Assembly: GCF_006345805.1 (NCBI RefSeq)
Contig: NC_043000.1
Span: 21,514,001 to 21,578,000, forward strand
Reading direction: 5' to 3'
Source: Octopus sinensis
Lineage: Eukaryota
DNA length: 64,000 bases
Each line of letters starts with the position of its first letter. Within the stretch, counting starts at the first letter, position 1. Below, piece by piece: positions 1 to 23,540 of the stretch. The position numbers and the translations under genes were made by a program. The notes under the pieces were generated by a model. That model had not been told where the DNA came from and did not search any database. It saw only the letters and a list, made by a program, of their open reading frames with translations.

Positions 1-63
1 AGGGGAGGGGCGGGGGGAGGGGAGGGGAGGGGGAGGGGCGGTGGGGAGGGGGCGGAGGAGGAG
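1..63. repeat. G-rich low-complexity tract
   Basis: Runs of GGGG separated by A/C. Confidence 0.8.
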
Positions 64-454
64 GATAACAACAATACCAGATTATTTCTGTATCAGTATC
101 TGTAGTATCTATTACATAAGGGCAATGCTGCTAAAGAAATCATTATTTCAATGAAAACCTCTCCAGTGTTCAACAAACCATAAAAAAGAAAAAACGCCTT
201 TTTATGGTTGCTCAATAACAAATCACTCATGGACATACTTATAAAATCAATATACAGTACAGCACCCATGACTTCCAGAAACACACATTTTTTCTATGCT
301 AAGAATTGTTATTGGGCTAAACTACTCAGTTTAGTCGTTGGCTGTCAGATGACAGCATCATTCAAAAATTCCATGCGTCTCTTCTGTGCACCTTTTCCTC
401 TTTAGGGCTCTTTTCCTGTTCACTTTTATGTCATTTTGTCATTTATTCAGTGAA

Positions 455-1200
455 ATCTTGTGGTGTAGTGGTTAGGGTATTTGGCACACAGCGATAAAGC
501 CATGAGTTTGATTCCCAGCAGACACTATATTTGAGCAGAACACTTTATTTCACGTTGCTCCAGTAAACTCAGCTGGCAAAAATGAGTTGTACATGTATTT
601 CAAAGGGCCAGCCTTGTAACATCCTGTGTCAGGCTGAATCTCCTTGAGATCTACATTAAAGGTATGTTGCGAGCTGGGGTATTTCGGCTGCCGTAACGTT
701 GTGAGTTCAAATTCCGCCGAGGTCGACTTTGCCTTTCATCCTTTCGGGGTCGATAAATTAAGCACCAGTTCCGCACTGGGGTCGATGTAATCGACTTAAT
801 ACCTATGTCTGTCCTTGTTTGTCCCCTCTGTGTTTAGCCCCTTGTGGGTAATAAAGAAATAGGTATGTTGCAAGCTGGCAGCAACGTTAGCACACTGGGC
901 GAAATGCTTAGCGGTATTTCATGCGCTGCTGCATCCTGAGTTCAAATTCCGCCGAGGTCGACTTAGCCTGTCATCCTTTTGGGGTCGATAAATTAAGTAC
1001 CAGCTATGCACTGGGTTCGATATAATCGACTTAATTCGTCTGTCTGTTCTTGTTTGTCTCCTCTGTGTTTAGCCCCTTGTGGGCAGTAAAGAAATAGGTA
1101 TATGTGTCTGTGGACTACTCACTCACTTGCATGTTAATTTCATGTGCAGGCTGTTCTGTTGATTGGTTTGACTGGAACCCTCATCGTCATAACCATCAGT
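455..1200 (+). mobile_element. Old tRNA-derived SINE carrying two nested family B SINE copies (about 668-862 and 870-1098)
   Basis: tRNA-like head gtgtagtggttaggg; gagcagaacactttatttcacgttgctccag core; repeated target ggtatgttgc at 661 and 862. Confidence 0.7.
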
Positions 1201-1214
1201 GCCAGTTAGGTTTT

Positions 1215-1447
1215 ATCTCTCTCTTTTACTTGTTTCAGTCATTTGACTGCGACCATACTGGAGCACTGCCTTTAGTCGAGCAAATCAACCCCAGGACTTA
1301 TTCGTTGTAAGCCTAGTACTTATTCTGTCGGTCTCTTCTTCCAAACCACTAAGCTACAGGGACGTAAACACACCAGCATCGGTTGTCAAGCGATATAGGG
1401 GTGACAAACACAGACACACAAACACACACACACACACACACACACTC

Positions 1448-1479
<32 letters not shown>

Positions 1480-1643
1480 GGCGGGCTTCTTTCAGTTTCC
1501 GTCAACCAAATCCACTTACAAGCTTTGGTTGGCCCAAGGCTATAGTAGAAGACACTTGCCCAAGGTGCCATGCAGTGGGACTGAACCCAGAACCATGTGG
1601 TTGGTAAGCAAGCTACTTACCACACAGACACTCCTACGCCTAT
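1215..1643 (-). mobile_element. tRNA-derived SINE family A (other copies about 3650-4085+, 5410-5830-, 9658-10275+, 13148-13535+, 29090-29485-, 33776-34205+, 43250-43640-)
   Basis: Shared head ggagtggctgtgtggtaagtagcttgcttaccaacc, central (TA/TG)n and tail gaaacaagtaaaagag. Confidence 0.85.
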
Positions 1644-1966
1644 GATCTATGTATGATGCATGTACTTTTAGCTTTCATTACTGTCTTTCTTTACTTGACT
1701 CAGCTTTCTGTCACTCTTGTACATTTCCCAATGTGTTGTAGTACACCTGAGCACTGTATACAATAAGATCATTATTATCATCAACTCTTCTACAATATAA
1801 ACTAAACAGAAGAGACACAGGGTCTCATCCATAGCAGATCACAGTACCCATGATGGCATGAAATCTTACAATTCATCAACAAAGTCTCCAACTTGTTATC
1901 AACTTAACAATTGTAACTGAACAGGTCTAAATTAAACTGGGTTGGTTGTAATTATTATAATAATAA

Positions 1967-2474
1967 TCTATATATATAAAACTGTAGTTGTGTGAGCGTC
2001 TGTCCCCTTCGATTTAGATTCCTAACTACTCCCACATTTTGCGGTGCAGTTTAACCAAATTCGGGTATCTTATAGTTGTGATTCATATCGAACCGTCTGA
2101 GTATTAGCGTGCGTCTACAATGAGTCTACGATTTAAAAATAATTTAACATCATTTTTTATTCCATTTTAATGCATAATTTTTGTGTGTCGATGGCGGCGG
2201 AGTTGGCGTCATGGTCACACCTGCACCTGTTTGCTTCTCCCCCTTCTTCCCTCCCTCGTGAAGCTGTGGGAAGGGAGTGTAAGGAAATCAACGTCGTAAA
2301 GCGTTGTCAAGGAGACCAGCGTTCTTTTAGAACAACGACTTCATGGCTTGAAGACACCAAAACAGAAATGGCTAAGAAAGCCCGAATTGGCATCTATAAG
2401 GGAAGTAACTCTCTAAAAATGCTTATATAGTTATTTCCCTTACAAACCCGAGCAACGCCGGGCGATATTACTAG
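1967..2474 (+). mobile_element. Non-autonomous Helitron
   Basis: 5' TC(TATATATA), 3' hairpin cccgagcaacgccggg followed by CTAG; inserted between A and T with no TSD. Confidence 0.8.
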
Positions 2475-2684
2475 TTATTATTATTATAATTTTTCAGACT
2501 GTTATCTTTACATTTAAAGACAAGATTTTTCAATATTTATGTCTACACTACATTTTGAAAATATTGATCTTTAATGGTAGTATAGATGAGGTTAATAGTC
2601 CATAAAATTATAGTTTAATTAATGACAACTCATCTCAGACATTCAAACTAATTAATATTTAATTGATTTTTCTTTTTAATTTAG

Positions 2685-2822
2685 GCTTATAATGCATAAT
2701 TCTAATGTTCATAATATTTTGAAAGAAAGAAATACATCTGTTCCAGAATAAAACACCAAATCTATTGCAGATTTTATTACCCAGGGCCAACAGCTATCTA
2801 TTTAAAGCTGTATATGCCTATG
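2685..2822 (+). CDS. FN3-Trx gene upstream exon (mostly non-coding or frame-disrupted; candidate start ATG at 2814 or 2820)
   Basis: Acceptor ttttaatttag|2685 (alternative ttccag|2747) and donor ATG|gtatgt at 2823. All three frames from 2685 contain stops. Confidence 0.4.
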
Positions 2823-3824
2823 GTATGTCCATGCTTAGAGTTTGCATCTCCAGTCTAGACCCTTACCTTGCTCAGCTATCAATCTCCTGGAAACTGTTCA
2901 GAAATGTTCAACCAGATGAATACCCATCGTCAAACATCTACCATACTCTGAACGTGTTGCTTCCCTGGGCATGGACACATTAAAGCTCCAATGTCTGGCA
3001 ACTGACTTGGTAGACATCCATCTTTCCAATAACCACCTTAAATACCTTTTTGAATTCCATATGCCAAACACTTGTTGGAAAAAATGGTGATTTTTAACTC
3101 ACAGCATTCAATTATTAAAAATTCATAATTGGAATGAATAAATAAAATTGAATATTAAGTATTTATGGAATTTTGATTTACTGTCAGGTGACTTTTGGCC
3201 AACCCTATATATACGTTTATATGTATGTGTGTGTCTTTATCTGAGTTTGTCCCCCATTTCATCACTTGACAACCAATGTTGGTATGTTTACGGCCCCATG
3301 ATTTAGCAGTTTGGCCTAAGAGACTGATAGAATAAGTACTATGCTTACAAAGAATAAACCCAGGGGTCGATTTCTTTGACCAAAAGGTGGTGCTCCAGCA
3401 TGGCCCTGGTCAAATGACTGAAACAAGTAAAAGAATAAAAGACTAAAAGAATATAAAATCAGATTTAGCATTTCATGAACACTATCCATCCTATTGGAAC
3501 AACCATGCATAGAACTGTATAATTCATTGAAATGAGGATTTTACATTCTGACATTCTGACATTCCTTAATGCTACTCTATAAATCTCAGCCACTTCTCTT
3601 CAGAGAGAAACTAATAAATTTCTCATGGATATGAGGATATTACATATAGGCACAGACATGGCTGTATGGTAAGAAGGTTACTTCCCAATCACATGGTTCC
3701 AGGTTCTGTCCCACTGCATAGCACCTTGTGCAAGTGTCTTCTACTATAGCCTCAGGCTGATCAAAGCCTTGAAGTGGATTTGCTAGGTGGAAACTGAAAG
3801 AAGCCTATCATATATGATGAGTGT

Positions 3825-3873
<49 letters not shown>

Positions 3874-6800
3874 TCTTTGTCTGCATTTGTCCCCCACCAT
3901 AGCTTGACAACCAGTGTGTTTACATCCTCATAACTTAGCAGTTCAGCAAAAGAAGCTGATATAACAAGAACCAGGCTTTAAAAAAAAACATACTGGGATT
4001 GATTCATTCAACTAAAAATTCTTTAAGGCGGCGCCCCAGCATGGCCACAATCTAATGACCAAAACAAATGAAAGATAAAAGATTAAAGATTAAAGACCTT
4101 AACCACTGACAACAGGAATCAATCAAAGCCGGCAAACTGGCAGAAACGTTAGCACGCCGGGCAAAATGCGTAGCTGTATTTCGTCTGCCACTACGTTCTG
4201 AGTTCAAGTTCCGCCAAGGTCGACTTTGCCTTTCATCCTTTCGGGGTCAATTAAATAAGTACCAGTTACGCACTGGGGTCGATATAATCGACTTAATCCA
4301 TTTGTCTGTCCTTGTTTGTCTTCTCTGTGTTTAGCCCCTTGTGGGTATTAAAGAAATAGGTATTTCATCTGCAGTTACTTTCTGAGTTCAAATTCTGCCG
4401 AGGTCGACTTTGCCTTTCATCCTTTCAGGGTCGATAAATTAAGTACCAATTACGCACTGGGGTCGATGTAATCCCTTGTCTGTCCTTGTTTGTCCCCTCT
4501 ATGTTTAGTCCCTTGTGGGCAATGGAGAAGTAAGTAACCTAAGGATGCTGGAGACACACAGCAAGTGACACAGCCTCTTCCCTCCATCTTTCCAGTCTTC
4601 ACCCAACCTCAAGTTAACTCTCCCACCCATACCTCTTCCTCCAATAAAATATGTTTCAATATGTTTTTGTACACTAGTGTTTTATATATTAATATTGGTG
4701 CAATTTCCTTTGGCAGGAAGTGTTGGCCATCAAGACTTCTTTGAAACTGGAGAATTTACTTGAAAAGTATATCATTGCTCTTTCCAATTACACAGGTAAC
4801 TTTTTAGTATATACATACATACATACATACAAACATACATCGTCACCAGTGTCACTTTACTGGCACTTGTGCCAGTGGCCCGTGAAAAAACATTAGAGCA
4901 AGGTCGTTACCAGTGCCGCTGGACTGGCTCCTGTGCAGGTGGCACGTAAAAAACACCATTTGCACGTGGCCGTTTCCAGTCCCACCTGACTGGCCCTTGT
5001 GCCAGTGGCATGTAAAAAGCACCCACTACACTATCGGAGTAGTTGGCGTTAGGAAGGGCATCCAGCTGTAGAAACATTGCCAGATCAAGATTGGAGCCCA
5101 GTGCAGCCATCTGGTTCGCCAGTCCTCAGTCAAATCGTCCAACCCATGCTAGCATGGAAAGCGGACGTTAAACGATGATGATGATGATACATGCATGCAT
5201 ACATTATCATCATCACCGCCGCCACCACCATCACCACCACCACCATAATTATCATCATCATCATTGTCATCATCATTTACATGCCAGGCAAAATGCTTAG
5301 CTGCATTTTTACATTGAGTTCAAATCCTATTGGGGTCGACTTTGCTTTGCATCCAGGGGCTAATGTAATCAACTATTTTCCTCGCCAAAAATTTCAGGCC
5401 TTATGCCTATCTCTTTTACTCTCTTTTACTTGTTTCAGTCATTTGACTGTGGCCATGCTGGAGCACTGCCTTTTAGTTGAGCAAATTGACCCCAGGACTT
5501 ATTCTTTGTAAGCCTAGTACTTATTCTATTGGTCTCTTTTGCCGAACCACTAAGTTATGGGGACATAAACACACCAGCATCAGTTGTCAAGCGATGTTTG
5601 GGGGACAGACACAGACACACAAACATATACACACACATACATATTTATACATATACATATATACAACGGGCTTCTTTCAGTTTCCGGCTACCAAATCCAC
5701 TCACAAGGCTTTGGTTGGCCTGAAGCTATTGTAGAAGACACTTGCCCAAGGTGCCAGACAGTAGGACTGAACCTGGAATCAATGTGGTTTGTAAGCAAGC
5801 TACTTACCACACAGCCACTCCTACCTATGGTAGAAAAGATTATCATTATCATTATTATAGAAAAGGTAGCAAGCTGGCAGAAGAATCATTAGCAAGCCAG
5901 GCAAAATGCTCATCAGCATTTCATCCATCTTTACATTCTGAGTTCAAATTCCACCAAGGTCAACTTTGCCTTTCATCCTTTCAGGGTCCATAAATTAAGT
6001 ACCAGTGAAAAACTGGGGTCGATGTAATCAACTAGTCTCCTCCCCAAAAAATTTCAGGTCTTGTGCCTTTAGTAGAAAGCAATATTATTATCATTAAAAA
6101 TGGCAATCTAGCAAGAATTGTTGGAGCATCAGACGATATTCTTAGTAGCATTTCTTTTGCAAGGTCAACTTTGCCTTTAATCCTTTCAGGGCACTTGTGC
6201 CAGTAGAATGTTAAAGCACATCTGAGCACAATCATTGCTAGGGCCACTGATCAGCTCTCGTGCCGGTGACACATGAAAGCACCATTTAAGCATGATTGTT
6301 GCCAGCATTGCCTTACCAGCACATGTGCCAGTGGCATGTGAAAAACAGCATTCAAGCGTGGTCATTGCCAGTGCCACAGGACTGGCTCCTGTGCAGGTAG
6401 CACGTAAAAACACCTTTTGATCATGGTCGTTGCCAGTACCGCCTGACTGGCCCTCATGCTGGTGGCACGTAAAAACCACCCACTACACTCTCAGAGTGGT
6501 TGCCCTTAGGAAGGGCATCCAGCTGTAGAAACTCTGTCAGATCAGATTGGAACCTGATGCAGCCTTCTGGCTCACTAGTCCTCAGTCAAACCATCCAACC
6601 CATTCCAGCATGGAAAGCGGACATTAAACGATGATGATAAGGGTTAATAAAATAAGTACCGGTTACACACTGGGGTTGATGTAATCGACTACCCCCCCCC
6701 CGAAATTGTTGACCTTACGCCAAAATTTGGGACCAATATTTCTATAAATAAAATATAATCTATTTCAGGTCAAGCTCTTCTTGATATAAGCTGGGAATGT

Positions 6801-9800
6801 ACACCAAGTAACCCAAATATTCAAGCCACTGGTTACCAACTTTTACTTGATGGACAGAACTTTGGTACTTTAATTCCTGAACCTAGCAGGAATTTCAAAA
6901 CAATGGTAAGTTTATCAGTCTAGCTAGTATCTTGTTCATCAATTAGATTTATTAACACGATTAATGTAGTCAAGCAAGAAATTTTAATTAGAATGTTTTA
7001 TGCCCAGAAATCGACAGCCCTAAAAAGACAACATTGATACAGCTGAAATACCTTTGATCAGAAGTCTATTCAATCTAACTACTACTGCCACTACTACAAC
7101 TAGATTTTACTACTTATTTTACTACTACTAAAATAAGTACCAGTTGTGTACTGGAGTCGATGTAATCGACTGTCCCCCCCTTCCCCACACCAGAAATTTC
7201 AGGCCTTGTGCCTTTAGTAAAAGGGATTAAGGTGGAGGTATTGTTTTCAGTCGTGTTTGTTTGTCTGTGGGCAAGATATCTCAAGAACCACTGGATGGAT
7301 TTGGATGAAACTTTCAGGAATGTTTGGCCTTGTGACTGGCACGAACAGATTAGATTTTGGAATCGATCCAGTACTGGACAAGGATTCTGGATTATTTTTC
7401 CGGTGTTTTTACTTAATTTTTGAGAGCAGGCGGGTTCATTTTAAGTATTGTCGTTTATGAGAGCAGTTGAGTTTATTTCAGATATTCTCATTTTAAAAAT
7501 CATCTCTGGCTAATCGTTGAGAGGACGTTGGTGTTGCCTTAGTGGAGGTTTGCGTTCTCTGAGTTATTATTACTATTATCGTTGTTTATGTTTTGTGTGA
7601 GTGTGTTCTTGCTCTTGTCATTTCAGTTAAAGGTAGACGACTCCAGCCATACTCTCAGTATGATAGCTCAATATGAAGACACTGAACTTTCTAGCCAAGA
7701 ATCTAATGCCATACAAATCGAAACAGCTCAATTTCTACCATTTACCTATTATTGTTACTGCAAAGGACACATCAAAGAGGCTAAGTAAGGAAGAATTTTT
7801 AGAGTTTTTTATTTTTGTTATCCATATCTACATGATAACTTACATCTGTGTCACTTTTCTCCTCTATGAATCCACTGAAGGCAACCATCTCTTTTACTTT
7901 GGATTGAAACGAGGTACTACTTGGAAACAGTGGTCCCAGTGCACGCACTCACATAGTCACGCATCCGCGCTAGCTAGTCGTGACTAGTCAATCCTACAAC
8001 GACTACCTAGCAAAGTAAATAAAACACAAAATAAATAATTTTTTTACACAAAGTAAATAATTTTTGTTAAACAAAGTAAATAAAACACAAAAACACAAAG
8101 TAAATAATTTTTTAAACAAAGTAAATAACACACAAAAACACAAAGTAAGGATCAACTAGTCATGACTAGCTAGCACGGATGCGCGACTATGCAAGTGCAC
8201 GCATTGCGGCCACTGCTCTCAAGTAGTACCTTGAAACGATTGGGTGCAGTTGTCCAGACACTCGACAATTTGGCTTGGCTCACTGGACATTTAACCTGTT
8301 TTGGGGACAGTACTTTCTGATGCTAGGGGAAGGCAAACACACACACACACACGCGCGCGCGCGCAAGCACATACATGCATGCACACACATGCACAGATGC
8401 AGAGTTATAGACATATAGATGAAGATAGCAAGAGAGAGGAAAAGAAAGAGGGAGAGAAATCCATTCCACATACATACAAATTGTTGTAAAGTATTCTTTT
8501 GCCACTGTTATATCTGTCTTTTGACGATGGTTGTCGCTCTGACAGATATAGTAATATTCCAAAGTCATCGATAGACTGTTTCTATCTGGCATTGTACGAC
8601 CCCTAGTCGTACAGTGTTATTATTCTCAAAAGGCCCACTTATAACGTCTCACGGCATGATTACTATAACTGTTTCTTTATTGCCCACAAGGGGCTAAACA
8701 CAGAAGGGACAGATAAGGACAGATAAAACGGATTAAGTCGATTATATCGACCCCAGTGCGTAACTGGTACTTATTTAATCGACCCCGAAAGGATGAAAGG
8801 CAAAGTCAACCTCGGCGGAATTTGAACTCAGAACGTAACGTCAGACGAAATACAGCTATGCATTTTGCCTGGTGAGCTAACGTTTCTGCCAGATCGCCCC
8901 ATTTCAACACAGTCTACACAACTTTCGACCTTTAACCTTCTGACCTTCTCATGTCAACCAGTTACCGGTCTATTTATAATGGCTGGCTATAACTACTTTT
9001 TACCGGGAGGAGTGTACAGTTTCACTATACAGCACAAACATAACTAGATGCTCACACATATAAACAAAATGAGAGAGTGAAAGAGAGGAGGGAAGGACAA
9101 GGGAAAAATTAAAATGAGAGAAACATGAAAATTTCTAATGTCAAGTAAGTCAGCATCAAATTAGCGACCCCCAAACAGGGGGTGCCAAAATGGCCAGGCC
9201 AAAACAGTTCATATACCTTCTGCTTTCATCATTTTTTACTGTTTTTTCCCAGCCACATAAACGTCCGATAGAATAAGTACTAGGCTTACAAAGAATAAGT
9301 CCTGGGATCGATTTGCTCGGCTAAAAGGCGGTGCTCCAGCATGGCCACAGTCAAATGACTAAAACAAGTAAAAGAGTAAAAGAGTCCTCGTGAATTCCCT
9401 TTTCACTTGTATTTTGATTCCATTTTCCAATTAGTAACAGTTCAAATTATCAATCAAATACATTGATCTTGATCGTTCAAATCAATGAGAGAGACTCTAT
9501 GTGTTCACTCAATCTTCTACAAATAGTTGCTGAATCTTCCTCAAATCACACCTTTCCATCTTAAAAAATGAAGGGATACATTATATAACGTAGTCTTAAA
9601 TATACTGTCTGAAAAAAAAAAGGCCTAGATAGTCATATATGAAACACTTTTGATCATAGGTGCAGGCATGGCTGTGTGGTATGAAACTTGCTTCCCAATC
9701 ATGTGGTTCCAGGTTCAGTCCCACTGCATGGCAGCTTGGGCAAGTGTCTACTACTATAGCCTCAAGCTGACCAAAGCCTTGTGAGTGGATTTGGTAAGCA

Positions 9801-12800
9801 GAAATTGGAAAAACCTGTCATATAGATATTTCTTTATTGCCCACAGGGGGCTAAACACAGAGGGGACAAACAAGGACAGACAGAGGGCTTAAGTCGGTTA
9901 CATCGACCCCAGTGCGTAACTGGTACTTAATTTATCGACCCCAAAAGGATGAAAGGCAAAGTCAACCTCGGCGGAAATTGAACTCAGAACATAACAGCAG
10001 CCAAAATACCGCTAAGCATTTCACCTGACATGCTAACGATTCTACCAGCTTGCCGTGTGTGTGTGTCTGTCTTTGTCCGCTACCACTGCTTGACAACCTG
10101 TGTTGGTGTGTTTCCATCCCCATAAGTTAGCAGTTCAGTAAAAGAAACAGAATAAGTACCAGGCTTAACAAAAAAAAAAAAGTACTGGGGTTAATTTATT
10201 CAACTAAAAATCCTTCAAGGTGGTGCTCCAGCATGACCACAATCTAATGACTGAAACAACTAAAAAAAAGATAAAAAGGTTCACAGAATCAAGGCTGACC
10301 TTCATTTAGACAATTACAGTAACCTCCCCCTTAGACCTCACTCAAAGAAGGCTTAAAAGTTATATATGCATTGCAGCTACTTTACCTCCTCCCCTTCTTA
10401 ATTAAGTATAGGTGGGGGTAGGAGCTATACAGAACTCACTGTTATGCTACTGCTGCTGTTGTTGTTGTTGTTAAGCAACAAGACAGGTAAGGGTGATTAG
10501 GTGATGGTCTAGGGCTTAGGGCAGGAGACCCCAGACGTTGGAAAAAAAAAACTTTGGTCGTCTTGTAGTCGAGGGCTCTTCGTTGACGCCCGACACCACT
10601 GAGAGGTGGCCCTCAAAGTCGCTGGAAGTGGAGATCTCCAGGTCCAAATTCTTGGACGGCTGCTGCTGCTGCATGCTCTGGGTTGATAGGGTTGGGGTCA
10701 TCCCAGGCTGGTGGTCCCAGAGATGACATTATGCATAGAGCCAGCCAGGTTTACCAGTGCTCTCAAATGCTAGAGATCTCATGCCAACCCCTCTGCATCC
10801 TCCGAGATGACATCAAACCTCTGGAGATTTCCCCCAATGACATCCAACCATCTGGTGCAGGGCCTGCCGCAGGGCCTCTTCCAGCCTGCAACTGCTGCAT
10901 CGAATGAGATTAGCCCCTGGTAAGATGATCTGACAGGAGGCAGATGACATGTCTTACCTCATTGTTATGATGCCCAAAACATTACACATCCAATGAAACA
11001 TATTTGCTTCCTTTCTTTCCATCTTTTGCACATCCTCTGCATTTGGTGCACACTTATTAATGCCATGCTGCACTGGAATTCATGCAGAAATGATATACAT
11101 CTACCCTTTGTTGTTAGCAGGGGTAATAGCTCTCTGAATTTTTTCCACATAATTTTTATCCTGTCCACTGTGCTTTCAATACATTCTTCACATCATTGTT
11201 TAGAAATTTTTTACTCTATTATGAGTTTTGGCCAAGTTGGAGCAGCCTCATCAATATTTGATAGCATCTAAAACTTATGTCAAACAGACCTTACAGGTAA
11301 AAGGCACCCAGTTCACTTTGTAAAGGGGTTGGCATTAGGAAGGGCATCCAGGTGTAGAAACCACACCAAAACTGACCATGGAGCTTAGTACAGTCTTCTG
11401 GCTTACCAACTCCTGTTAAACTCTCCAACCCATGCCAGTACAGATGGCATGTGTCAAATGATGGCGGTGGTGATGATGATGATGATCATGATGATCATGA
11501 TGATGACGATGATGACGATGATAACAATGACGATGATGACGATGATGACAACAATGATGACGACGATGACGATGATGATGATGATGATGATCTAATGTTT
11601 TGTTTTTTATTTCTTTAATATCTTATGTAGATGGCCAACTGTTGGTTGCTGCCAGTTCGTAGATGCTTTAAGCCAGGAACAACAGCTCTGCAAGAAGTTG
11701 TCAAACCCCGGTGTTATGAAACAATCATTCCAGCTTCCTGATTGCTTGTTAAAGAACCAAACCAACAACAGTTTTGAACCAGTGTTTCCAATTCAAGGAG
11801 CAACATGCCCAACACTTGTTTTGTTTTGGATACCATGGTGAGTACAATATACCGTAAATCATCAAGTATAGTTCGCCCTTGAGTATAACACGCAGGGGAT
11901 TTTTAGGGGGCTGTACCTCTGAAAAACCTAAACCTTGTGTATAATACGCACCCCTTCTCTAACTTGAGTCAAGGTGGTCTATATAATGTCCTTGGTTTGT
12001 AAAAATGCTTATGGTAACGTCCTTTATTATTATTGTACATATAACATAATGCAAACGTGTAGCTTTTTTGTGCATTTTGTTTGCATAAAATAAAGTTATA
12101 ACAGTAATAACGTTTAATAAATGTTGCTTACTGCAAGTTATGGATGATTCTTTTATGACTTCATTGCTTTCAGGCTTAGCTTAAGGTATTTTCGTGCCCG
12201 ACATCACAAAATGCGTCTGAATAAACATTGCCAGACAGCAAATAGAGACTCGGACATTGCTTAGAAAATATTTTTCATTTTTAACCTCATATATAGTATG
12301 CACTAGGGATTTTGACCTTTAAATTTTGAGAAAAAAATGCGGATTATACTCGAGGATTTATGGTACTCATTTGTTGACTTAAATGTCTGATCTTCATTCT
12401 AAACTCTCCTTAATGAGCTCATTAATTATATCGCTGCAACTTTTCTGTTTACAGGTGCCATCCTTGCAAGAAGGTTATGAACTTTTTGGTTACATTTGTG
12501 CGAGAACATCCGAATCTGGTAAGTTAGGGTTATAGTAATAATATTAGTCACTAAGTTAGGGTGGTGCACTGGCAGTATCGGTAGCATGCAGGGACAAATG
12601 CTTAGCAGCATTTTGTCCATTTGTATGTTCTGAGTTCAAATTTTGCTTTCGGTCATTTCAGGATCAATAAAATAAGAACTAGTTGAGCACTGAGGTCAAC
12701 CAAATCCACTCACAAGGCTTTGGTCGGCCCGAGGCTATAGGAGAAGACACTTGCCCAAGGTGCCATGCAGTGGGACTGAACCCAGAACTATGTGGTTCGT

Positions 12801-15800
12801 AAGCAAGCTACTTACCACACAACCACTCCTACACCTATGAGCCACTCCTACTGCATTAAATATGTAAACATTTAGGCACATGGTCAAAATTTGGAGGAAG
12901 TGATATAGTCAATCATATAAACCTCAGCTGGTATTTGATTGTTACTTGATTTATCAATCCCAAAAGAATGGCTGGCAAAGACCTTAGCAGAATTCATGTT
13001 CAGAACATAAAAGATCTACAACAAATTACTAAAAAAATACAGAACTCTGTTCTGCCAAATCACTAATCTTAAATGAAATAAACATTGTATTTATATGGAT
13101 TAAATGATTAAAACATTCTTGCTTCATTATTTTGTCATTGATTATTTGAGTGGCTGTGTGGTAAGTAGCTTGCTTACTAACCACATCCTTCAAGGTTCAT
13201 TCCCCCTGCATGGCACCTTGGGCAAGTGTCTTCTACTATAGCCTCGGGCCGACTAAAGCCTTGTGAGTGGATTTGGTAGAAGGAAACTGAAAGAAGCCCG
13301 TCGTATATACATATATCTGTTTTGTGTGCATATGTTTGTGTTTTTGTGTTTGTCCCCCCAGCATCGCTTGACAACTGATGCTGGTGTGTTTACATGCCCG
13401 TAACTTAGCAGTTCGGCAAAAGAGACTGATAGAATAAGTACTAGGCTTCCAAAGAATAAGTCCTGGGGTCGATTTGCTTGACTAAAGGCAGTGCTCCAGC
13501 ATGGCCACAGTCAAATGACTGAAACAAGTAAAAGAATACTACATCCTTCAAAATTTCCATTTTTTCCTGAAATTTACCAACAGAACACTGGATGTCCTCC
13601 TCGCCCCTTTTTTTTTTTAATAGCTCCTTCACAGTTCACTTCTTGTGAACATTTAGAAGACGATACAAAAAACATGGACGGGACATTCGAAGCCTTCAAT
13701 CTCAGTCAAGAACCGGATCATTCTCGCAATTTTGGCTGATTAATCTTGAGATTGCTCCAATCTGGCGAGCCCCAAGGAAAAACTAAGCTACGAGCATTAG
13801 ATTTCTTGGAAAAAGGATCGAATGTATACGAAACAAGGACAGAAAAACGGACGATGCCACACGAATATATATACAAAAAACAATAATAGTAATAACAGGA
13901 CAAAGACAGCGGGTGTCTTACGACTATAGACAGTACAACTTAGCTTAACTGGCGTATTTAGAAAAAAATGCCTTTTTCGGCAGACGAAGAAAACGATGTT
14001 CTCGTGGCGGTGGTCAGAAGCCGAAAGGCTGGTTGACCAGCTGTCACGTGAGAGGAGAAGAGAGAGAAAAAAAAGGAGGCAAAGGAATCAAAGAGAGAGC
14101 GAAAAAGAGGGACAAAGGCACCAAAGGGGGCAGAAGAGAGAGAAAGAAGGAATTAAAGAGGGGAGAAGAAAGAGAGCGTGCCAAGGATCGACTTGGCGAC
14201 AGAATCAGTGAGGTGCAAAGTGAGAATGACAGAGAAATGTGAGAGAGTGGGGGAAGAGGAGACCAAAGAATCAGAGGCAAGAAAAGAGAAAAGGAGGAGG
14301 AGAAGAAAGAGAGAGAGAAAGAGACAGATCAAAGTGGAGTGCAAAGTGTGAAAGGCAGAGAAATGTAGGAGAGGGGGAAGAGAGAGACAGTGTTATAGAG
14401 TCGTACCAAATTTAAAGAAATATGTACTTACATACAAGACCAAAAAGGGTACGGGCGTCGCTATATATATATATATATATATGTATATGTAAAAAAATAC
14501 TAACTGGGACAAGAACGCAAAACATTTGGAAGACGATACAAAAAGCACGGACGGGACATTCAAAGCCATCAATCTTCATTTCTGATTAATATTTTCTTGT
14601 GAAATTATTTTTATTGTGTGCATTTTTGCTTTGTTTCATTTATTTCTTATTTGTTATTTTTAGATTTTGGTAAGGCTATTCGTGAAAACACATAATCCTG
14701 ATTGTAATTTTATACTATTCTACAGATTTTGCCTTTTCTGTCTCTTATGTTCACCATTTACATACACACAATCTCTTTCCCTTTAACATACAAAGACATT
14801 CTCTCATTGAGAGAATATAGGCGCAGGAGTGGCTGTGTGGTAAGTAGCTTGCTAACCAACCACATGGTTCCAGGTTCAGGCCCACTGCGTGGCATCTTGG
14901 GCAAGTGTCTTCTGCTATAGCCCCGGGCGGACCAATGCCTTGTGAGTGGATTTGGTTGACGGAAACTGAAAGAAGCCTGTCGTATATATGTATATATATA
15001 TATATGTATATGTGTTTGTGTGTCTGTGTTTGTCCCCCTAGCATTGCTTGACAACCGATGCTGGTGTGTTTACGTCCCCGTCACTTAGCGGTTCGGCAGA
15101 AGAGACCGATAGAATAAGTACTGGGCTTACAAAGAATAAGTCCCGGGGTTGATTTGCTCGACTAAAGGCAGTGCTCCAGCATGGCCGCAGTCAACTGACT
15201 GAAACAAGTAAAAGAGTAAAAGAATATATATATATATAAGTATGTGTATATATAGAGAAGAAATTAAGATGTACATCATTATAAATATTTAGTTCCTTTG
15301 TACATTTTACCATTGCAGTAATTCGGAGCTCAATACTGGATGTTTCAAGTACATTTGGATGCTTAACTGGACTGGCACATCTGAGGAACACTTTTTTGGC
15401 ATTCTGTTACAGAGATCAAATAAGTATTCAAGGGTCAAGTAGCCACTATACTGGAATAGTTCTCAACCAGGGTCCATATGGCCCCTGAAGGTCCATATAA
15501 GATTTTTGGGGGTCCACACAGTAAAATAGTAAAATGGAGATCCACAATAGTATTTGAAGGGTCCCTGAAAAAATTTCACTTTAGATGTATGTATTGGTAT
15601 GTATTGCAAGAAACAGCAAGATTTCTTTCTCTAACATTTTACATAGGTCAACCTATACAAATTAATGTGTAGAAAACAAAAAAGGAATTTTGAAAGAAGT
15701 TTCTATAAAACTAGTTTTTAAACATTTAATGGCTGTGGGGGTCAACCAGAATAAAATAGTAATCAAAGGGGTCCATATGTGATGTAGTGGCATTGCGCAA

Positions 15801-17424
15801 TTTGACTTTGTAACAGACTGGATTCTCTCATATCTGCTTAATGTAAATGGTTGTAGCTGAAATGTCTTTTTGTTTTCTCAAAATGTTTTATTTTCCCTTC
15901 TATCACCATAATTTGTTACAGTTTGCCATGCCTGCTTGATATTACTCCACCAAACAACAGCACAGTTTATGATAGCATTGCTTAGGTGATATCTATTTCA
16001 TATCATCACAAACATTCACAGTTTGTGTAGTTAAAGCTTGTATGATATCTGCTTGATATCATCACAGTCACTTACAGTTTGTTTCTTTCTAGGGGACCTT
16101 AGCTCCTAAGAGAGTCATTGGGGTAGTCTTGTGACTGACATATGGCATTTAATATGACGTTTAATGTCAGGAATGTCAGGAATGTCTGGAATGTCAGGAA
16201 TGTCAGGAATGTCAGGAATGATCACTCTCGGCACCCTCTTTGATCTCTGTTGGCACCCTCTTTGATCTCTTTGATATCTGTCGGCACCGTCTTTGATTTC
16301 TGTCGGCAGGCTCTTTGATCTCTGTCGGCGCACTCTTTTATCTCTGTCAGCACCCTCTTTGATATCTGTCGACACTCTCTTTGATCTCTGTCGGCACACT
16401 CTTTTATCTCTGTCGGCACCCTCTTTGATCTCTTTCGGCACTCTCTTTGATCTCTGTCGGCACCCTCTTTGATCTCTGACGACACCCTCTTTGATATCTG
16501 TCGGCACTCTCTCTTGATCACTGTCGGCACTCTCTTTGATCACTGTCGGCACCCTATTTGATCCCTGTCGGCACTCTCTTTGATCTCTGTCGGAAACCTC
16601 TTTGATCTCTGTCGGCACTCTCTTTGATCTCTGTCAGCACCCTCTTTGATCTCTTTCAGCACTATCTTTGATCTCTCTCGGCACCCTCTTTGATCTCTGT
16701 CGGTACCCTCTTTGATCTCTGTCGGTACCCTCTTTGATCTCTGTCGGCGTACTCTTTTATCTCTGTCAGCACCCTCTTTCATCTCTGTCGGCACGCTCTT
16801 TGACCTCTGTCGGCGCACTCTTTTATCTCTGTCAGCACCCTCTTTGATCTCTTTCGGCACGCTCTTTGACCTCTGTCGGGGCACTCTTTTATCTCTGTCA
16901 GCACCCCCTTTGATCTCTCTCGGCACCCTCTTTGATCTCTGTCGGCACCCTCTTTGATCTCTGTCGGCAGGCTCTTTGACCACTGTCGGCGTACTCTTTT
17001 ATCTCTGTCAGCACCCTCTTTCATCTCTGTCGGCACTCTCTTTGATCTCTGTCGGCACCCTCTTTCATCTCTTTCAGCACTATCTTTGATATCTGTCAAC
17101 ACTCCTCTTTGATCTTTGTCGGCACCATCTTTGATGTCTTTCGGCACTCTCTTTGATCTCTGTCAGCACCCTCTTTGATCTCTGTCGGCACCCTCTTTGA
17201 TCTCTGTCGGCACTCTCTTTGGTCTCTGTCGGCACTCTCTTTGATCTCTGTCGGCACCCTCTTTTATCTGTCAGCACCCCCTTTGATATCTCTCAACACT
17301 CCTCTTTGATCTTTGTCGGCACCATCATTTATGTCTTTCGCGACCCTCTTTGATCTCTTTCGGCGTTCTTGTCCCAGTTTGTATTTTTTTACATATACAT
17401 ATATATATATATAATATATATATA

Positions 17425-17476
<52 letters not shown>

Positions 17477-17506
17477 ACATATATATACATATACATATAC
17501 ATATAC

Positions 17507-17571
<65 letters not shown>

Positions 17572-17792
17572 AAGAAAATATACAAGAAATTCACTTATTG
17601 CAAAAGGAAAAAAAATTAACAATGCTTTTATACAATAATGCCATGTTTCAAAATAAACATCGTGCTGAGAGAAAGTGCAAGTGCTGTATGCTGGTCAAAA
17701 TCAAAAATGCCATGCTTTGGACAAATCTTATGCAGAGCAAGAGTATGGTGGTCAAACAGACATGCTTTTCATTATAATCAATACTATTACTA

Positions 17793-17841
<49 letters not shown>

Positions 17842-20800
17842 CATTATTAAGGCAGTGAGGTGGCAGATACAGTAACATGCCGGACAAAAAATTCTTAGCA
17901 GCCTTTCATCCATCTTTGTGTTCTGAGGTTCAAATTTATCTTTGCTTTTCATCTTTTCGGGGTCAATAAAATAAGAACCCTTTGAGTACTATGTTCAATT
18001 ACATTGACGTTCATGCACTTTTGGCTGCTCTTTCTGATGAGCTGTAGTAGTGCACCTGAGCACTGTATACAATAAATTTGTTATTTTATAATAAAAAATA
18101 AGCTTAAAATTTATCAAAATATTGTTTATTTGTTTGCAGTGTACTGCAATGTAATCAGACATTTTGTTTTTCTACTGAAAATGCCAGCTTTCTTATCTTC
18201 TTACTTATTTTGTTTGTTTTCTCCATGTTCTGCTTAATTTCATATCAGTTCTCCTACCTGTGTATAAACTGTGACACCCAGTGTAAAGCAGGAGATTCTT
18301 CTCACCTCACTTCTCTTGAGAACGACTGGAATAAAGAACCAGCCATCAAGCACTATTCTTCTCACATGATACTTGGTAAGAACTTCTCTACTTATTGCTA
18401 TTTAGAATTTCAGACAAGAGCCAACTACTTAATTCTCAAGCCAAACTAAAATCCAATCATGGGAGAGTTTGTAAAGTTCATTTGCAATGAAGATTTGCTT
18501 GATAGATTAGAAATAGAAGCCTAGTCACCCTTAAAATGAGGTATAAAGCTAAATAAAAAAATAAGGATCAATGGTCTTTTCCGAGCTTTAGGCTTATAAG
18601 GCCAGTTTTACCAGATTCTGTGGCATGGATGATCCCCCTTGGATGGAACACAAGTCTGTTACAAGATTACCATAAATCTTTGAGTATAATCTGCATTTTT
18701 TTTCAAAATTTAAAGGCCAAAGTCCCTAGTGCATACTATATACGAGGTCAAAGATGAAAATTATTTTCTAAGCAGTGTCCGAGTCTCTATTTGCTGTCCG
18801 GTAATGTTTATTCAGACGCATTTTGTGATGTCGGGCGCGAAAATACCTTAAATCATCCATAACTTGCAGTAAGCAACATTTATTAAACATTATTACAGTT
18901 ATTTCTCTATTTTCTGCAAACAAAATGCACAAAAAAGCTACACATTTGCATTATGTTATATATACAATAATAATAAAGGACGTTACCGTATACAGTTTTA
19001 CAAACCAAAGATGTTATATAGACCTCCTTGACTCAAGTTAGAGAAGGGGTGCGTATTATTCACAAGGTTTAGGTTTTTCAGAGGTACAGCTCCCTAAAAA
19101 TCCCCTGCGTATTATACTCAAGGGCAGACTATACTTGAGGATTTATGGTACTCATTTTTGCCAGCTGAATGGAATTGAGCAACATGAAATGAAATGTTTT
19201 GCTCAAGAACACAACACATTGCCCCTTCCAGGAATCAAAACCACAATCTTATGATCACGGGTGCAATACCTTAACCACTAAGCCAAGTACCTCCACATGA
19301 AACTAAATACTACCTTGCATTTAGCCTTAATCTTTACTATTTCTGTCATACTCTCACCATTCATCAATCATAAGAACTTGAAATTCATTAATCTTTTCAT
19401 CATCATCATCATCATCATCATCGTTTAACATGCTAGCATGGGTTGGACAGTTCGACCGGGGTCTGGGAAACCAGGAAGCTGCGCCAGGCTCCAGTCAGAT
19501 CTTGCAGTGTTTCTACAGTTGGATGCCCTTCCTAACGCCAACCACTCCATGAGTGTTCTGTTGAATATAGTTTAAAGGAGGTTCAGCTATCCCATGATGC
19601 ATTAGATGAATACTAATTTTTCAGTAATGATCTCAAGAAACCAATAGAAATTACAAGTCATCCATAAACCTAAAAGTCATCATCATCATCATCATCATTT
19701 AGCATCCATTTTCCATGATGGCATGGGTTATATCGTTTGACAGGAGCTGGTGACTCAGAGAGTTGCACCAAGATCCAGTTGTCTGTTTTGACACGGTTTC
19801 TATAGTTGGATGCCCTTCCTAACACCAACCATTTTATAAAATGTATTGCATGCTTTTTATGTGGGGCTAGCATGGCTACTTTTTACAGCGTATATTGAAA
19901 ATAATTTCTGTCAAAACAAAACAATGACTTAACTTCACTAAGTGTGCATTAAAATATACTTTTTTTCTTTTACTCTTGTTGTCCCTTTTAAAACCATTTT
20001 TGTTTCATTGTTTTGCAGGAAACAAACATCCAGATGATGAATGCACAGAAACAAAAGATCTTAGGCAATATCTTGGAATTGAAGGCCTGCCAAGTATTCT
20101 TTTGACTGATAATATGGGTACGGGCATTTTTAAATACTTGAGTGGATTTGATAGAAACTGAAGAAAGGCAGTGAGCTGGCAGAATCGTTAGCACGCCGGG
20201 CGAAATGCTTAGCGGTATTTCATCTGCCGTTACGTTCTGAGTTCAAATTCCGCCAAGGTCAACTTTGCCTTTCATCCTCTCGGGGTCAATAAATTGAGTA
20301 CCAGTTACACACTGGAGTTGATGTAATCGACTTAATCCGTTTGTCCTTGCTTGTTCCCTCTATGTTTAGCCGGTATTTCGTCTGCCGTTACGTTCTGAGT
20401 TCAAATTCCGCCGAGGTCAACTTTGCCTTTCATCCTTTCGGGGTCAATAAATTGAGTACCAGTTACACACTGGAGTTGATGTAATCGACTTAATCCGTTT
20501 GTCCTTGCTTGTTCCCTCTATGTTTAGCCGGTATTTCGTCTGCCGTTACGTTCTGAGTTCAAATTCCGCCGAGGTCAACTTTGCCCTTCATCCTTTCGGG
20601 GTCAATAAATTGAGTACCAGTTACACACTGGAGTTGATGTAATCAACTTAATCCGTTTGTCCTTGCTTGTTCCCTCTATGTTTAGCCGGTATTTCGTCTG
20701 CCGTTACGTTCTGAGTTCAAATTCCGCCGAGGTCAACTTTGCCTTTCATCCTTTCGGGGTCAATAAATTGAGTACCAGTTACACACTGGAGTTGATGTAA

Positions 20801-20885
20801 TCGACTTAATCCGTTTGTCCTTGCTTGTTCCCTCTATGTTTAGCCGCTTGTGGGCAATAAAGAAATAAGAAACTGAAAGAAGCCC

Positions 20886-20918
<33 letters not shown>

Positions 20919-23205
20919 ACGTTTTCTTGTCTTGAAATTCTGTGATGGTTGTAAACGAGTGTCACTGACAATCATTTCCAGTTCTCTGTGCAACCAAAGT
21001 TGTTGACGTTCCATCTTGTGTCCAGTTAGCACTACCCCTGGCATCACACACCTTTCCAGGGCTGACACACCCCCTGATCCACTGCCACCTTGAAACAACC
21101 ACTGCTACTTCCACAGCCAACCTGAGATCACAAACAGATGACTGTTTATGATCCTTCTCTCTCTCTCTCTCTCTCTCTTTTACTCTTTTACTTGTTTCAA
21201 TCATGTGACTGTGGTCATGCTGGAGCACCGCCTTTTAGTTGAGCAAATCAACCCCAGGACTTATTCTTTGTCAGCCCAGTACTTGTTCTATCAGTCTCTT
21301 TTGTTGAACCGCTAAGTTACAGGGACGTAAACACACCAGCATCGGTTGTCAAGCGATGTTGGGGAGACAAACACAGACACACAAACATATACACACACAG
21401 GAGGGGGAGGGGAAGAGGAGGAGGAAGAGGAGTTTAACTGCCAAGTGTTCACACTAATATTTGTTTCTTTTTTACAATAAAAATTTATCTAATTAGAATT
21501 CTTTTTGTTTTTCTTCCCAGGTTTCATTCTGTGGCATGGCAGGTTTTGTGCACCAAATTACAAGTTGTTTTCATCCTTCCTGCTTCATGCACTGCATCAG
21601 GTGAACTCAAGCAACAGAAAGAACTGTATTCATTGCGAAATGGAACGTTCTCAAGACAGTGATATAGAGTGTATGTCACATTTCTTCTGATTTCTCTATT
21701 TTCATTTATTGATCAGAACCACAAAAGATAAAGTTTAATAGATCTGAAACCATATTTTCTTTTTCAGTTATAGTCATATCACAACTGCATAATCTGAGAT
21801 ACAAATGTACGTGCTGTCACTCTTTACTTGACTTATATGTCCGCTTTCAGTACTATTTAACACTTTAGCATTCATGTTATTCTATCAAATGTAAAGCTTA
21901 TTCAGGAGGAATTCCTACCACATTGTGTGGTTCGCTACCTCAACCGCTCCTTTATAGGATCCAGTGGCTAAAGACATCATCAGGAGGAACCACATCCTGT
22001 TTCAGCCTCTACTTCTGCCCCCAACCTTCGGAGGTGTCTTCAGCTCTGGTCTTCAGTGCATTTTTTCTTTTGTTCTTTGGTTTCTTCAATGCAGCATCAA
22101 TGAACATCGGTGGGTGAATGACCATCCTGCCAAATTTCCCTTTAAATACTTGCCAGTAGGCTCAAGTAGCCAGCTAACTGTCATGCAACATTGTCTAAGC
22201 TTCAACTGACCAATGGAAGGGAAGGACGCATAGTTTTAGCCTGCACCCTCTCTAAACTTGCCTTCCAACAGTATCATGTTAGTTTCAGTTCCAGCAGCCA
22301 GAGCCAACCAACTCTTTGGTGGTACAAGCCTTCAAACCAAGAGGAGGGTATGCTATGAATGAGATCGATATCTTGGCCTGCCTCACCTAGTGACACTATT
22401 TACCAGTCAGCTTTCAAGCCATTTGGAGTCTTCTTGTTTCAGCCATATATAGAAGCTGGCTTTGTCGAATGCCTCCTGTATCCTCCTTATTACTTTTCTC
22501 AGCTCCAAGTTCGAAGATGCAAACCTGTTTTTAAATAACGTCACCATTTCTTTTCATTTGAATGAATAATTTATAAGCTTATTATTATTATTTTTATTAT
22601 TATTATTATTATTATATTATTATTATTATTATTATTATCGTTATTATTATCATTATTATTATCATTATTATCATTATTATAAAGGCAGCAAGCTAGCAGA
22701 ATCATTAGCACACTGGGTGAAATGCTTAGCCATATTTCATCTGTCGCTACGTTCCGCGTTCAAATTCCAGGCCTTGTGCCTATAGTTGAAAGTATTATTA
22801 TTACTGAATGTCTAGATAGCCATGCTAAATTGTCAGCTTCCAAGCAGCTGCATCCAATCACCTCTTGCATTCACTTATTGAGATAGAAGAAGACAGAAGG
22901 AAAGAAAAGGAGTAAAGAATAAGAAAAAGACATAAATATTTTTTTTTATCTCCATTCTCTTTTTACTATTAATTCAAATTGTGTCTGTTTTCTTTGCAGT
23001 TATTCAGCAACTACTCAGAGAAAGTGATGCTCTCTTGGAAAAGATAATTCACTGTAAGCAGGTATTATCAGGATCAAAACTGAAGAAAATGCTATTTAAA
23101 CGTCCTAATAGTAGCCAAAGCTATTATTCTTTTGAAAAGGATTTAAATTTTCAAGAAGACCAGCTCATTGATTTAAATAACTCTAGGGATAATGAACAAC
23201 AATGA
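2814..23205 (+). CDS. Multi-exon gene: FN3-like domain plus TlpA/thioredoxin-fold (WCHPC) protein, about 411 aa; 5' end uncertain
   Basis: join(2814-2822,4717-4795,6769-6905,7627-7784,11631-11837,12455-12518,18249-18375,20019-20117,21521-21670,23000-23205) = 1236 nt. All introns are GT-AG, phases are compatible and there is no internal stop. FN3 hallmarks: [29 protein letters not shown]. Trx-fold hallmarks: [16 protein letters not shown] and [16 protein letters not shown]. Confidence 0.8.
4129..4535 (+). mobile_element. tRNA-derived SINE family B (Nin-domain-like core), dimer; other copies about 8672-8898-, 9826-10055-, 24929-25490+, 27690-27895+, 28200-28605-, 30505-30900+, 38439-38658+, 61032-61265+, 61531-61765-, 62823-63054-
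   Basis: Head ggcggcgagctggcagaaacgttagc, core ggtcgactttgcctttcatcctttcggggtcgataaattaagtaccag, tail aaagaaata. Confidence 0.85.
4717..4795 (+). CDS. FN3-Trx gene exon ([26 protein letters not shown])
   Basis: ttcctttggcag| acceptor, CAG|gtaac donor; 79 nt, ends in phase 1, matching the next exon. Confidence 0.65.
4840..5190 (+). mobile_element. RTE-tailed short repeat family E with internal tandem units of about 66 bp and a (GAT)n tail (also about 6190-6640, 11305-11590, 19400-19550, 35430-35670, 41715-41970, 59140-59580)
   Basis: Shared ggcgttaggaagggcatccagctgtagaaac...aacccatgctagcatggaaagcggacgttaaacgatgatg end. Confidence 0.7.
6769..6905 (+). CDS. FN3-Trx gene exon, FN3 N-half ([46 protein letters not shown])
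   Basis: tatttcag| acceptor, ATG|gtaagt donor; 137 nt; FN3 SW and GY motifs. Confidence 0.85.
7627..7784 (+). CDS. FN3-Trx gene exon, FN3 C-half ([52 protein letters not shown])
   Basis: catttcag| acceptor, AA|gtaagg donor; 158 nt; same frame as ORF 7582..7788. Confidence 0.85.
7913..8230. mobile_element. Foldback MITE, MULE-like
   Basis: Imperfect TIRs of about 85 bp (GGTACTACTTG...CAAGTAGTACC), AT-rich core, exact 9-bp TSD TTGAAACGA at 7904-7912 and 8231-8239. Confidence 0.85.
10490..11270 (-). mobile_element. Degenerate LINE fragments (LINE 5' piece ending FSNVWGL; RTE RT C-terminal piece)
   Basis: [20 protein letters not shown] resembles the RTE post-RT region; FSNVWGL resembles the start of an APE domain. 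Confidence 0.5.
11631..11837 (+). CDS. FN3-Trx gene exon ([70 protein letters not shown])
   Basis: cttatgtag| acceptor, TG|gtgagt donor; 207 nt, open; TlpA-type lead-in LPD...PTLVLFW. Confidence 0.88.
11852..12363 (+). mobile_element. Tc1/mariner (Tc2-like) MITE, copy 1
   Basis: TA|CCGTAAATCATCAAGTATA...TATACTCGAGGATTTATGG|TA termini. Confidence 0.8.
12455..12518 (+). CDS. FN3-Trx gene exon carrying the CxxC active site ([22 protein letters not shown])
   Basis: ttttctgtttacag| acceptor, CTG|gtaagt donor; 64 nt; completes the TG|G Trp codon. Confidence 0.9.
13647..14590. mobile_element. Repeat with terminal direct repeat and purine-rich core, possibly Penelope-like
   Basis: aacatttagaagacgatacaaaaaacatggacgggacattcgaagcc at about 13648 recurs at about 14521 after a (TA)n tract. 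Confidence 0.4.
14819..15222 (+). mobile_element. Near full-length tRNA-derived SINE family A copy
   Basis: Head ggcgcaggagtggctgtgtggtaag, tail gtaaaagagtaaaagaata, flanked by repeated agaatata. Confidence 0.85.
16164..17365. repeat. Minisatellite: 6 x 9-mer (aatgtcagg) then about 50 x 22-mer (ctctttgatctctgtcggcacc)
   Basis: Directly visible tandem array; it generates the repetitive ORFs at 16115-17470. Confidence 0.95.
17390..17570. repeat. (TA)n/(TACATA)n microsatellite
   Basis: Visible in the sequence. Confidence 0.95.
18249..18375 (+). CDS. FN3-Trx gene exon ([42 protein letters not shown])
   Basis: catatcag| acceptor, TTG|gtaaga donor; 127 nt, phase 0 to 1. Confidence 0.85.
18670..19148 (-). 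mobile_element. Tc1/mariner (Tc2-like) MITE, copy 2, inverted relative to copy 1 and inserted in a SINE
   Basis: Reverse complement of 11852-12363 over most of its length; TA flanks. Confidence 0.8.
20019..20117 (+). CDS. FN3-Trx gene exon with cis-Pro loop ([33 protein letters not shown])
   Basis: ttgttttgcag| acceptor, TGG|gtacgg donor; 99 nt; GxxGLPxxxLxD motif typical of TlpA-like folds. Confidence 0.87.
20166..20870 (+). mobile_element. Family B SINE with four tandem 158-bp body units
   Basis: Units start (cggtatttc) at 20213, 20371, 20529 and 20687. Confidence 0.9.
21521..21670 (+). CDS. FN3-Trx gene exon ([50 protein letters not shown])
   Basis: tttcttcccag| acceptor, AGT|gtatgt donor; 150 nt. 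Confidence 0.85.
21900..22550 (-). mobile_element. 3' fragment of an RLE-type (Hero/R2-superfamily-like) non-LTR element
   Basis: Minus frame ...[29 protein letters not shown] (stop at 22409-22407) resembles Hero C-termini; it is followed by a putative 3' UTR. Confidence 0.5.
23000..23205 (+). CDS. FN3-Trx gene terminal coding exon ([22 protein letters not shown]...DNEQQ*)
   Basis: tttctttgcag| acceptor, phase 1, TGA at 23203-23205; same frame as ORF 22981..23205. Confidence 0.8.
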
Positions 23206-23289
23206 AATGTGAGCAAATTATAACATATAATAACATGTTGTCATAGACCAACAAGAAAGCAACTCAACATCTGCAAAAATGAAAGCAGA

Positions 23290-23540
23290 ATTTAATAAAA
23301 TAAAACTACAAAATAAACAAAATATATTCATACAGGTTTCTTTTTAAATGTTAGTTATATAATTAAGTAGGTTCATGTGCCACACACACATACACTACCC
23401 ACATCTTGTTAAAGTAAAAAAATATATTTATCTTTGAATTGATAACAATTAAATAGTGCAAATTATTTCTTGTAAAATATAAAAGGAGCATTTTACTTGA
23501 ATATATAAATATTACCTTTTATATCTAATAATAAAACCAT
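23290..23540 (+). terminator. Candidate polyadenylation signals of the FN3-Trx gene
   Basis: Several AATAAA hexamers (about 23294, 23312 and 23530) in the AT-rich region after the stop codon. Confidence 0.35.

Follow-up and report, generated by a model that had tools for sequence, protein, structure and literature searches.

Thioredoxin folds of the TlpA/ResA/DsbE type are found in small bacterial dithiol enzymes. They have an N-terminal hairpin, a strand-helix insertion, a Trp-Cys pair at the first helix and a proline loop. Among animal proteins, the nearest functional analogue of the protein described here is human NHLRC2 (6gc1), a cytosolic multidomain protein with a Trx8/TlpA-like domain that stands first in the chain, carries a CCINC site and is combined with a beta-propeller. 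RIM-binding proteins contain three FN3 domains flanked by SH3 domains, and tandem cupredoxin-like sandwiches are found in multi-cupredoxin proteins such as ceruloplasmin and factors V and VIII.

We analysed a 64,000-nucleotide stretch of the Octopus sinensis genome (the window; G000:C4:21514001-21578000). It is repeat-rich and belongs to a genome of 2.72 Gb; negative positions below are upstream of it. The window holds the 3′ end of a gene that has likenesses to all of these systems, but whose family belongs neither to NHLRC2 nor to the RIM-binding proteins and does not conserve the CxxC that marks the dithiol TlpA enzymes. As modelled for a relative, its thioredoxin-like domain has the features of the TlpA type listed above (Z 15-17 with TlpA 1jfu/4txo, SdbA 5um7 and ResA 2f9s); however, this domain stands at the end of a protein of about 3,000 or more residues, and the resolving Cys is absent from 9 of 10 sequences. 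The likeness to NHLRC2 (Z 13.4, 11% identity) is limited to one domain, as NHLRC2 has neither an FN3 array nor cupredoxin-like repeats. The nearest solved FN3 by profile is that of the Drosophila RIM-binding protein (6q9m, E 7.9e-05), but the family has many more FN3 copies, along with thioredoxin and cupredoxin-like parts, and no SH3 family was matched by Pfam in the 12 scanned relatives of at least 1,200 residues. Ceruloplasmin and factors V/VIII fill the top Foldseek rows of the N-terminal model, whereas the family has no copper loop and no signal peptide; as the whole-model TM-scores are 0.1-0.17, no arrangement shared with these proteins is shown. The true relatives are uncharacterised NCBI gene models, which have the same domain order and C-terminal region, with CxxS, CxxA or no Cys at the active site.

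Exon structure and extent of the gene

The preliminary description had proposed nine consecutive GT-AG exons that splice in phase without stops, encoding an FN3-like domain fused to a TlpA-type thioredoxin domain. We found nine plus-strand exons at 4717-23205, with AG acceptors throughout and GT donors on exons 1-8. With the donor of exon 8 at 21670, they form an in-phase chain of 1227 nt, that is 408 codons and a single stop (23203-23205), and so the exon chain was borne out. The features are as follows.

1..4716, + strand: intron; the gene continues upstream (tblastn of relatives, in-phase chain, RNA contig)
4717..4795, + strand: exon 1, second helix of the hairpin predicted within the last FN3 (AG/GT, phase, alignment with relatives, helices of the P0001 model)
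6769..6905, + strand: exon 2, FN3 strands with W, GYQ and DG motifs (contigs X1, X2, X6; alignment)
7627..7784, + strand: exon 3, end of the FN3 and start of a Cys/His-containing linker (contigs X1, X2, X3, X6)
11631..11837, + strand: exon 4, linker, TlpA-like N-terminal extension and first core strand, to a split Trp codon (contigs X1, X2, X3, X6)
12455..12518, + strand: exon 5, CHPC (Cys 12456-12458, Cys 12465-12467) and the next helix (sequence; contig spacing)
18249..18375, + strand: exon 6, TlpA-type strand-helix insertion (phase, contig spacing, alignment)
20019..20117, + strand: exon 7, GLP loop, its invariant Pro at 20090-20092 (loose end of X1; Pro in 10/10)
21521..21670, + strand: exon 8, last strands and helix of the thioredoxin fold, then a CxxC-like Cys pair (21670-23000 joint; match to P0001)
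23000..23205, + strand: coding part of exon 9, with a C-terminal tail that is poorly conserved, and the stop (RNA contigs; 36% identity to the P0001 tail)
23206..23537, + strand: 3′ untranslated region, AATAAA at about 23530 (X2/X3 contigs end at 23537/23536; hexamer scan)

Chance was ruled out through transcripts and not through shuffling. The RNA status of the sequencing runs is a guess and not on record, and the spliced contigs themselves serve as the evidence; the RNA-type runs behind the exon joins carry the labels of three studies. Exons 2-3-4 run without gaps in contigs of X1 and X2, exons 3-4 in X3 and exons 2-3 in X6. All three RNA-type runs that were compared at the joint (X1, X2 and X3) have 21670 spliced to 23000 (GT..AG), which places the end of exon 8 at 21670; X1 and X2 have C as the final base of this exon, and X3 has T. 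By consensus, the strongest donor is the one at 21600; it was rejected, as its frame stops 15 codons into exon 9 and as it was unused in 3/3 RNA-type contigs. In run X18, the 21670-23000 intron is mostly present as DNA. The spacing from exon 4 to exon 8 in the X1 and X3 contigs is 290 nt, which equals exons 5, 6 and 7 together (64+127+99), and the loose end that precedes exon 8 in the X1 contig is the 3′ end of exon 7. Thus, exons 2-9, eight of the nine, are either seen in the contigs or bracketed by them, and the joins 2-3-4 and 8-9, for which the preliminary description had proposed a check in RNA, were seen directly. Exon 1 rests on splice sites, phase and homology, as it is absent among the contig pieces listed.

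Several other features were observed in the window. Intron 5 contains a 22-bp minisatellite of about 50 copies (16267-17364), and intron 7 contains four head-to-tail 158-bp copies of a SINE-like unit that are 98% matched (20205-20846). Further downstream, a 409-codon open frame (44473-45699) is LINE-like, with a weak endonuclease/reverse-transcriptase Pfam match (E 3.5e-4), and a 313-codon stop-free frame on the minus strand (62833-63771) has no Pfam match at E 0.05.

The X1 contig has 2,223 nt 5′ of exon 2, against the 79 nt of exon 1, and the gene must therefore extend well beyond exon 1. Scanning the 100 kb upstream for exons revealed one of 218 codons (Pfam fn3, 50.4 bits), and tblastn on the neighbouring stretches aligned the relatives colinearly on the plus strand, over a span that begins about 144 kb before the window, with the first cupredoxin-like exon near G000:C4:21370067, and reaches exon 9. 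A scored chain against the relative P0002 placed 25 upstream exons in phase between -60902 and -2772; by itself, this chain missed the short window exons 1 and 5. An 85-nt candidate exon, 378-294 bases before the window, would join the upstream chain to exon 1 in phase. These upstream exons are homology-based, and the FN3-thioredoxin half alone amounts to about 2,000 codons. The gene measures about 167 kb, with the nine exons at its 3′ end, and we estimate its product at about 3,000 or more residues. What had been described as an FN3-thioredoxin fusion is, by tblastn and by the chains, the last 408 residues of this much longer protein. Colinearity, together with P0002, which bridges the linker, suggests that the cupredoxin and FN3-thioredoxin halves form one transcript in O. 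sinensis.

Two observations concern the upstream region. An acidic low-complexity linker exon with several KENSQ-type repeats (L007, about -59241 to -58860) lies between the two halves of the gene. The cupredoxin-repeat exon at -138474 has a partial, near-identical copy 2.2 kb downstream (L015, about -136290 to -136105, G000:C4:21377710-21377895), which diverges into a stop and is likely a dead exon duplicate.

Relatives and domain order

Exon 4, which is single copy in the genome, gave no match when used alone as a homolog query. The upstream 218-codon exon retrieved P0001 (1936 aa), and a snail protein and P0002 came from a second homolog search. In a full HMMER scan, 54 representative hits were obtained, of which about 40 align well to the family; 28 of the 54 were looked up, most of them without a name. 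Low scores led us to drop P0011 (Antedon), along with about ten further generic FN3 hits, as non-relatives. The product of the window matches the profile of its relatives with E 5.5e-88; its identity to six of these relatives is 19-36%.

The named relatives come from the snails Plakobranchus and Bulinus, and from Lingula, Dimorphilus, Ptychodera, Saccoglossus, Anneissia and Asterias. The family thus spans molluscs, a brachiopod, an annelid, hemichordates and echinoderms in one domain order, and the relatives complete at both ends have 3191, 3241 and 3697 residues. They are labelled "uncharacterized", "hypothetical" or, for P0003 of Plakobranchus, "fibronectin, partial". Their NCBI gene models include Lingula LOC106180596, Saccoglossus LOC100370084, Anneissia LOC117115100, Asterias LOC117306614, Ptychodera XP_070557721, Dimorphilus DgyrCDS1941 and Bulinus Btru_066540. 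The gene had been called cryptic; it was indeed missed by the list of open reading frames, but its relatives are annotated at NCBI as uncharacterised gene models, and as these are public the gene is not new to databases. With one exon as query and many nameless hits, no named relatives were found in vertebrates, arthropods, nematodes or cnidarians, and for the same reasons their absence from these groups cannot be concluded. In agreement with the preliminary description, we found no named protein with this architecture, and searches of the main texts of open-access papers for the domain combinations and locus names returned no paper on the family. The architecture and the family appear to be undescribed.

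The order of domains is seven cupredoxin-like repeats, an Fn3-associated domain, an FN3 array of at least ten domains with a long acidic linker, a last FN3 that bears a hairpin, the thioredoxin fold and a tail. The FN3 assignment of the preliminary description holds. The fn3 family scored 191.8 bits for P0001, and the last FN3 was matched by Ig_RIMBP2 with 39.8 bits in P0002 and above the cut-off also in P0003, P0007 and others; it is the six-relative profile of this last FN3 that matched the Drosophila RIM-binding protein. In the model of P0001, a two-helix hairpin is predicted to follow the first strand of the last FN3, with exon 1 encoding its second helix, and a low-confidence linker separates this FN3 from the predicted thioredoxin fold. 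Conserved Cys/His columns are found in the linker (window 7760-7784 and 11631-11655), and a Cys pair follows the last helix of the thioredoxin fold (21630-21645) in 7/10 sequences; together, these residues could form a zinc site.

The cupredoxin-like repeats of this genome were read exon by exon only, and the counts come from 41 repeats of six relatives. Pfam hits of the N-terminal repeats to Cupredoxin_1/Copper-bind are weak. An 818-residue N-terminal model (pLDDT 73) is predicted to be a chain of beta-sandwiches, with which Foldseek was not discriminating (TM 0.07-0.17). Its axoneme rows are beta-sandwich chains of a generic kind, and no evidence for cilia was drawn from them. The type-1 copper loop, C-x(1-3)-H-x(2-5)-M, was found in 0/41 repeats; Ser is the commonest residue in the column of the copper-loop Cys (21/41), and the first His is retained in 29/41. 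The protein could be imagined to handle metals, with the His-bearing repeats and the Cys/His linker binding copper or zinc and the TlpA-like domain maintaining the ligands in reduced form, which is the role of bacterial TlpA towards ScoI and CoxB. We consider this very improbable, given the missing copper loops, the approximately 2,500 residues that separate the repeats from the thioredoxin domain, and matches to TlpA that concern the fold only.

The thioredoxin-like domain and its active site

The structure was predicted for the matching 396 aa of P0001 (six sequences, pLDDT 68), which is 36% identical to the product of the window. Foldseek with this C-terminal model ranked TlpA first (E 4e-09), and VIA-align gave Z 17.0 for SdbA (rmsd 2.2, 140 aligned) and Z 15.1 for TlpA. 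Atlas placed the domain in the AhpC-TSA/Redoxin group (0.93). The Pfam family Thioredoxin_8 was matched below its curated cut-off, with 18.6-23.6 against 27 bits, in P0001, P0002, P0006, P0059 and L028, and none was reported for P0007, P0025, P0026, P0094 and L029; Pfam on the nine single exons of the window returned nothing significant. The predicted fold agrees with the TlpA-type fold and proline loop of the preliminary description.

The WCHPC site of that description is also present, at residues 194-198 of the spliced product, where it is interrupted by the exon 4/5 junction. It is not typical of the family. We compared ten sequences including that of the window, leaving out isoforms and six truncated relatives that end short of the site. 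The motif is CHPC in the window, CIPS in P0001, CLPS in P0002, CLTS in Lingula, CQAS in L028, CLAS in Ptychodera, Asterias and L029, and CLAA in Anneissia; Dimorphilus has no Cys. The first Cys is thus found in 9/10, and the second position is Cys in the window only (1/10), Ser in 8 and Ala in 1. The Pro preceding the third core strand is found in 10/10. By these alignments, the CxxC is an exception of this genome's copy and not a trait of the family, and one changed base in a Ser codon would be enough to yield the second Cys in this genome.

These counts bear on the redox-active dithiol enzyme that had been proposed. A thiol-disulfide oxidoreductase tethered to interaction domains, at least in this genome's copy, would account for WCHPC at the canonical position, for the Pro loop and for the TlpA/ResA fold in the model of a relative. 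We consider it improbable, since a need for both Cys would preserve both, while the second is found in one of ten sequences and the two closest relatives (35-36% identical) are CxxS. As only 1/10 sequences have CxxC, such an activity would at most be a property of this lineage.

The other extreme is a catalytically dead binding module, in which case the protein would be purely a structural scaffold of retired enzyme folds, with copper-less cupredoxins and a pseudo-thioredoxin. One of the ten sequences has lost both Cys and another is CxxA, the copper loop is missing from 41/41 repeats, and NHLRC2 offers a precedent, as its cytosolic TlpA-like domain had no insulin-reductase activity according to PMC6107167. 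Against this, the first Cys is retained in 9/10 and the Pro in 10/10 despite 19-36% identity to the window product where measured, and the Ser found at the second position in 8/10 is the usual residue there in single-Cys sites, as stated in PMC2757866. A dead module is possible and, in our view, rather unlikely.

N-terminus and proposed function

The start is MG(A/T)GAS in all five relatives with complete N-termini, none of which shows a hydrophobic leader. Hydropathy over 19 residues peaks at 1.2-1.7 across ten proteins, with the peaks located in domain cores, consistent with the earlier remark that no transmembrane segment is evident. A secreted, fibronectin-like matrix protein would fit the source name of P0003 and the best solved-structure sequence hits of P0007, which are fibronectin FN3 modules. 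Nevertheless, with MG(A/T)GAS in place of a hydrophobic N-terminus in 5/5 complete members and a last FN3 that is closest to that of the intracellular RIM-binding protein, we find a matrix protein scarcely credible.

Judged from its pattern, the MG(A/T)GAS start may be a myristoylation and ciliary-cargo signal. Gly2, small residues at 3-5 and Ser6, the pattern of high-affinity UNC119 cargoes, are found in 5/5 complete relatives. According to PMC8246649, such cargoes have small residues at 3-5 and are destined for cilia or the immune synapse; the same paper gives a GNAT1 peptide whose first seven residues are the same as those of the Bulinus relative P0005, and also notes that UNC119-type motifs are found in non-ciliary proteins. 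A ciliary location, taken from six residues, would be a guess. In this genome, a fitting MG start was not found in the 256 kb upstream of the first cupredoxin-like exon, and this copy may therefore lack the myristoylation start.

With moderate confidence, we propose that the protein is a giant intracellular scaffold, predicted to be lipid-anchored, and that it ends in a TlpA-like domain that would act through one Cys, as a thiol switch or in docking, and not as a dithiol reductase. N-myristoylation of Gly2 would tether the protein to a membrane, and UNC119-type delivery may first bring it to cilia. The approximately 25 beta-sandwiches could serve as a long spacer and binding surface, by analogy with the intracellular FN3 domains of the RIM-binding protein. 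As Ser occupies the position of the resolving Cys, a mixed disulfide formed by the exposed first Cys would be lasting, or this Cys would undergo reversible oxidation; in this genome's copy, the second Cys may allow the self-release of partners. In Dimorphilus, where the first Cys is lost as well, a non-redox role would fit.

A bolder version of this proposal would make the proteins an ancient bilaterian family of giant myristoylated ciliary scaffolds, common among marine invertebrates that bear cilia, with a single-Cys thioredoxin on a rod of about 25 sandwiches as a membrane-tethered redox sensor, which regained CxxC here and so became a self-resolving enzyme. We regard this as speculative and, taken as a whole, as doubtful as the dithiol enzyme.

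The gene and its architecture are well supported, and its function is a proposal. Three folds that are usually met apart are joined in one protein, and as 3,200-3,700 residues keep one domain order across the molluscan, brachiopod, annelid, hemichordate and echinoderm relatives, the protein likely does something basic. The natural CxxS/CxxC pair between species offers a ready test of the domain's role as sensor, enzyme or dead module. If the protein is ciliary, invertebrate cilia would gain both a large component that had been missing and a connection to redox.
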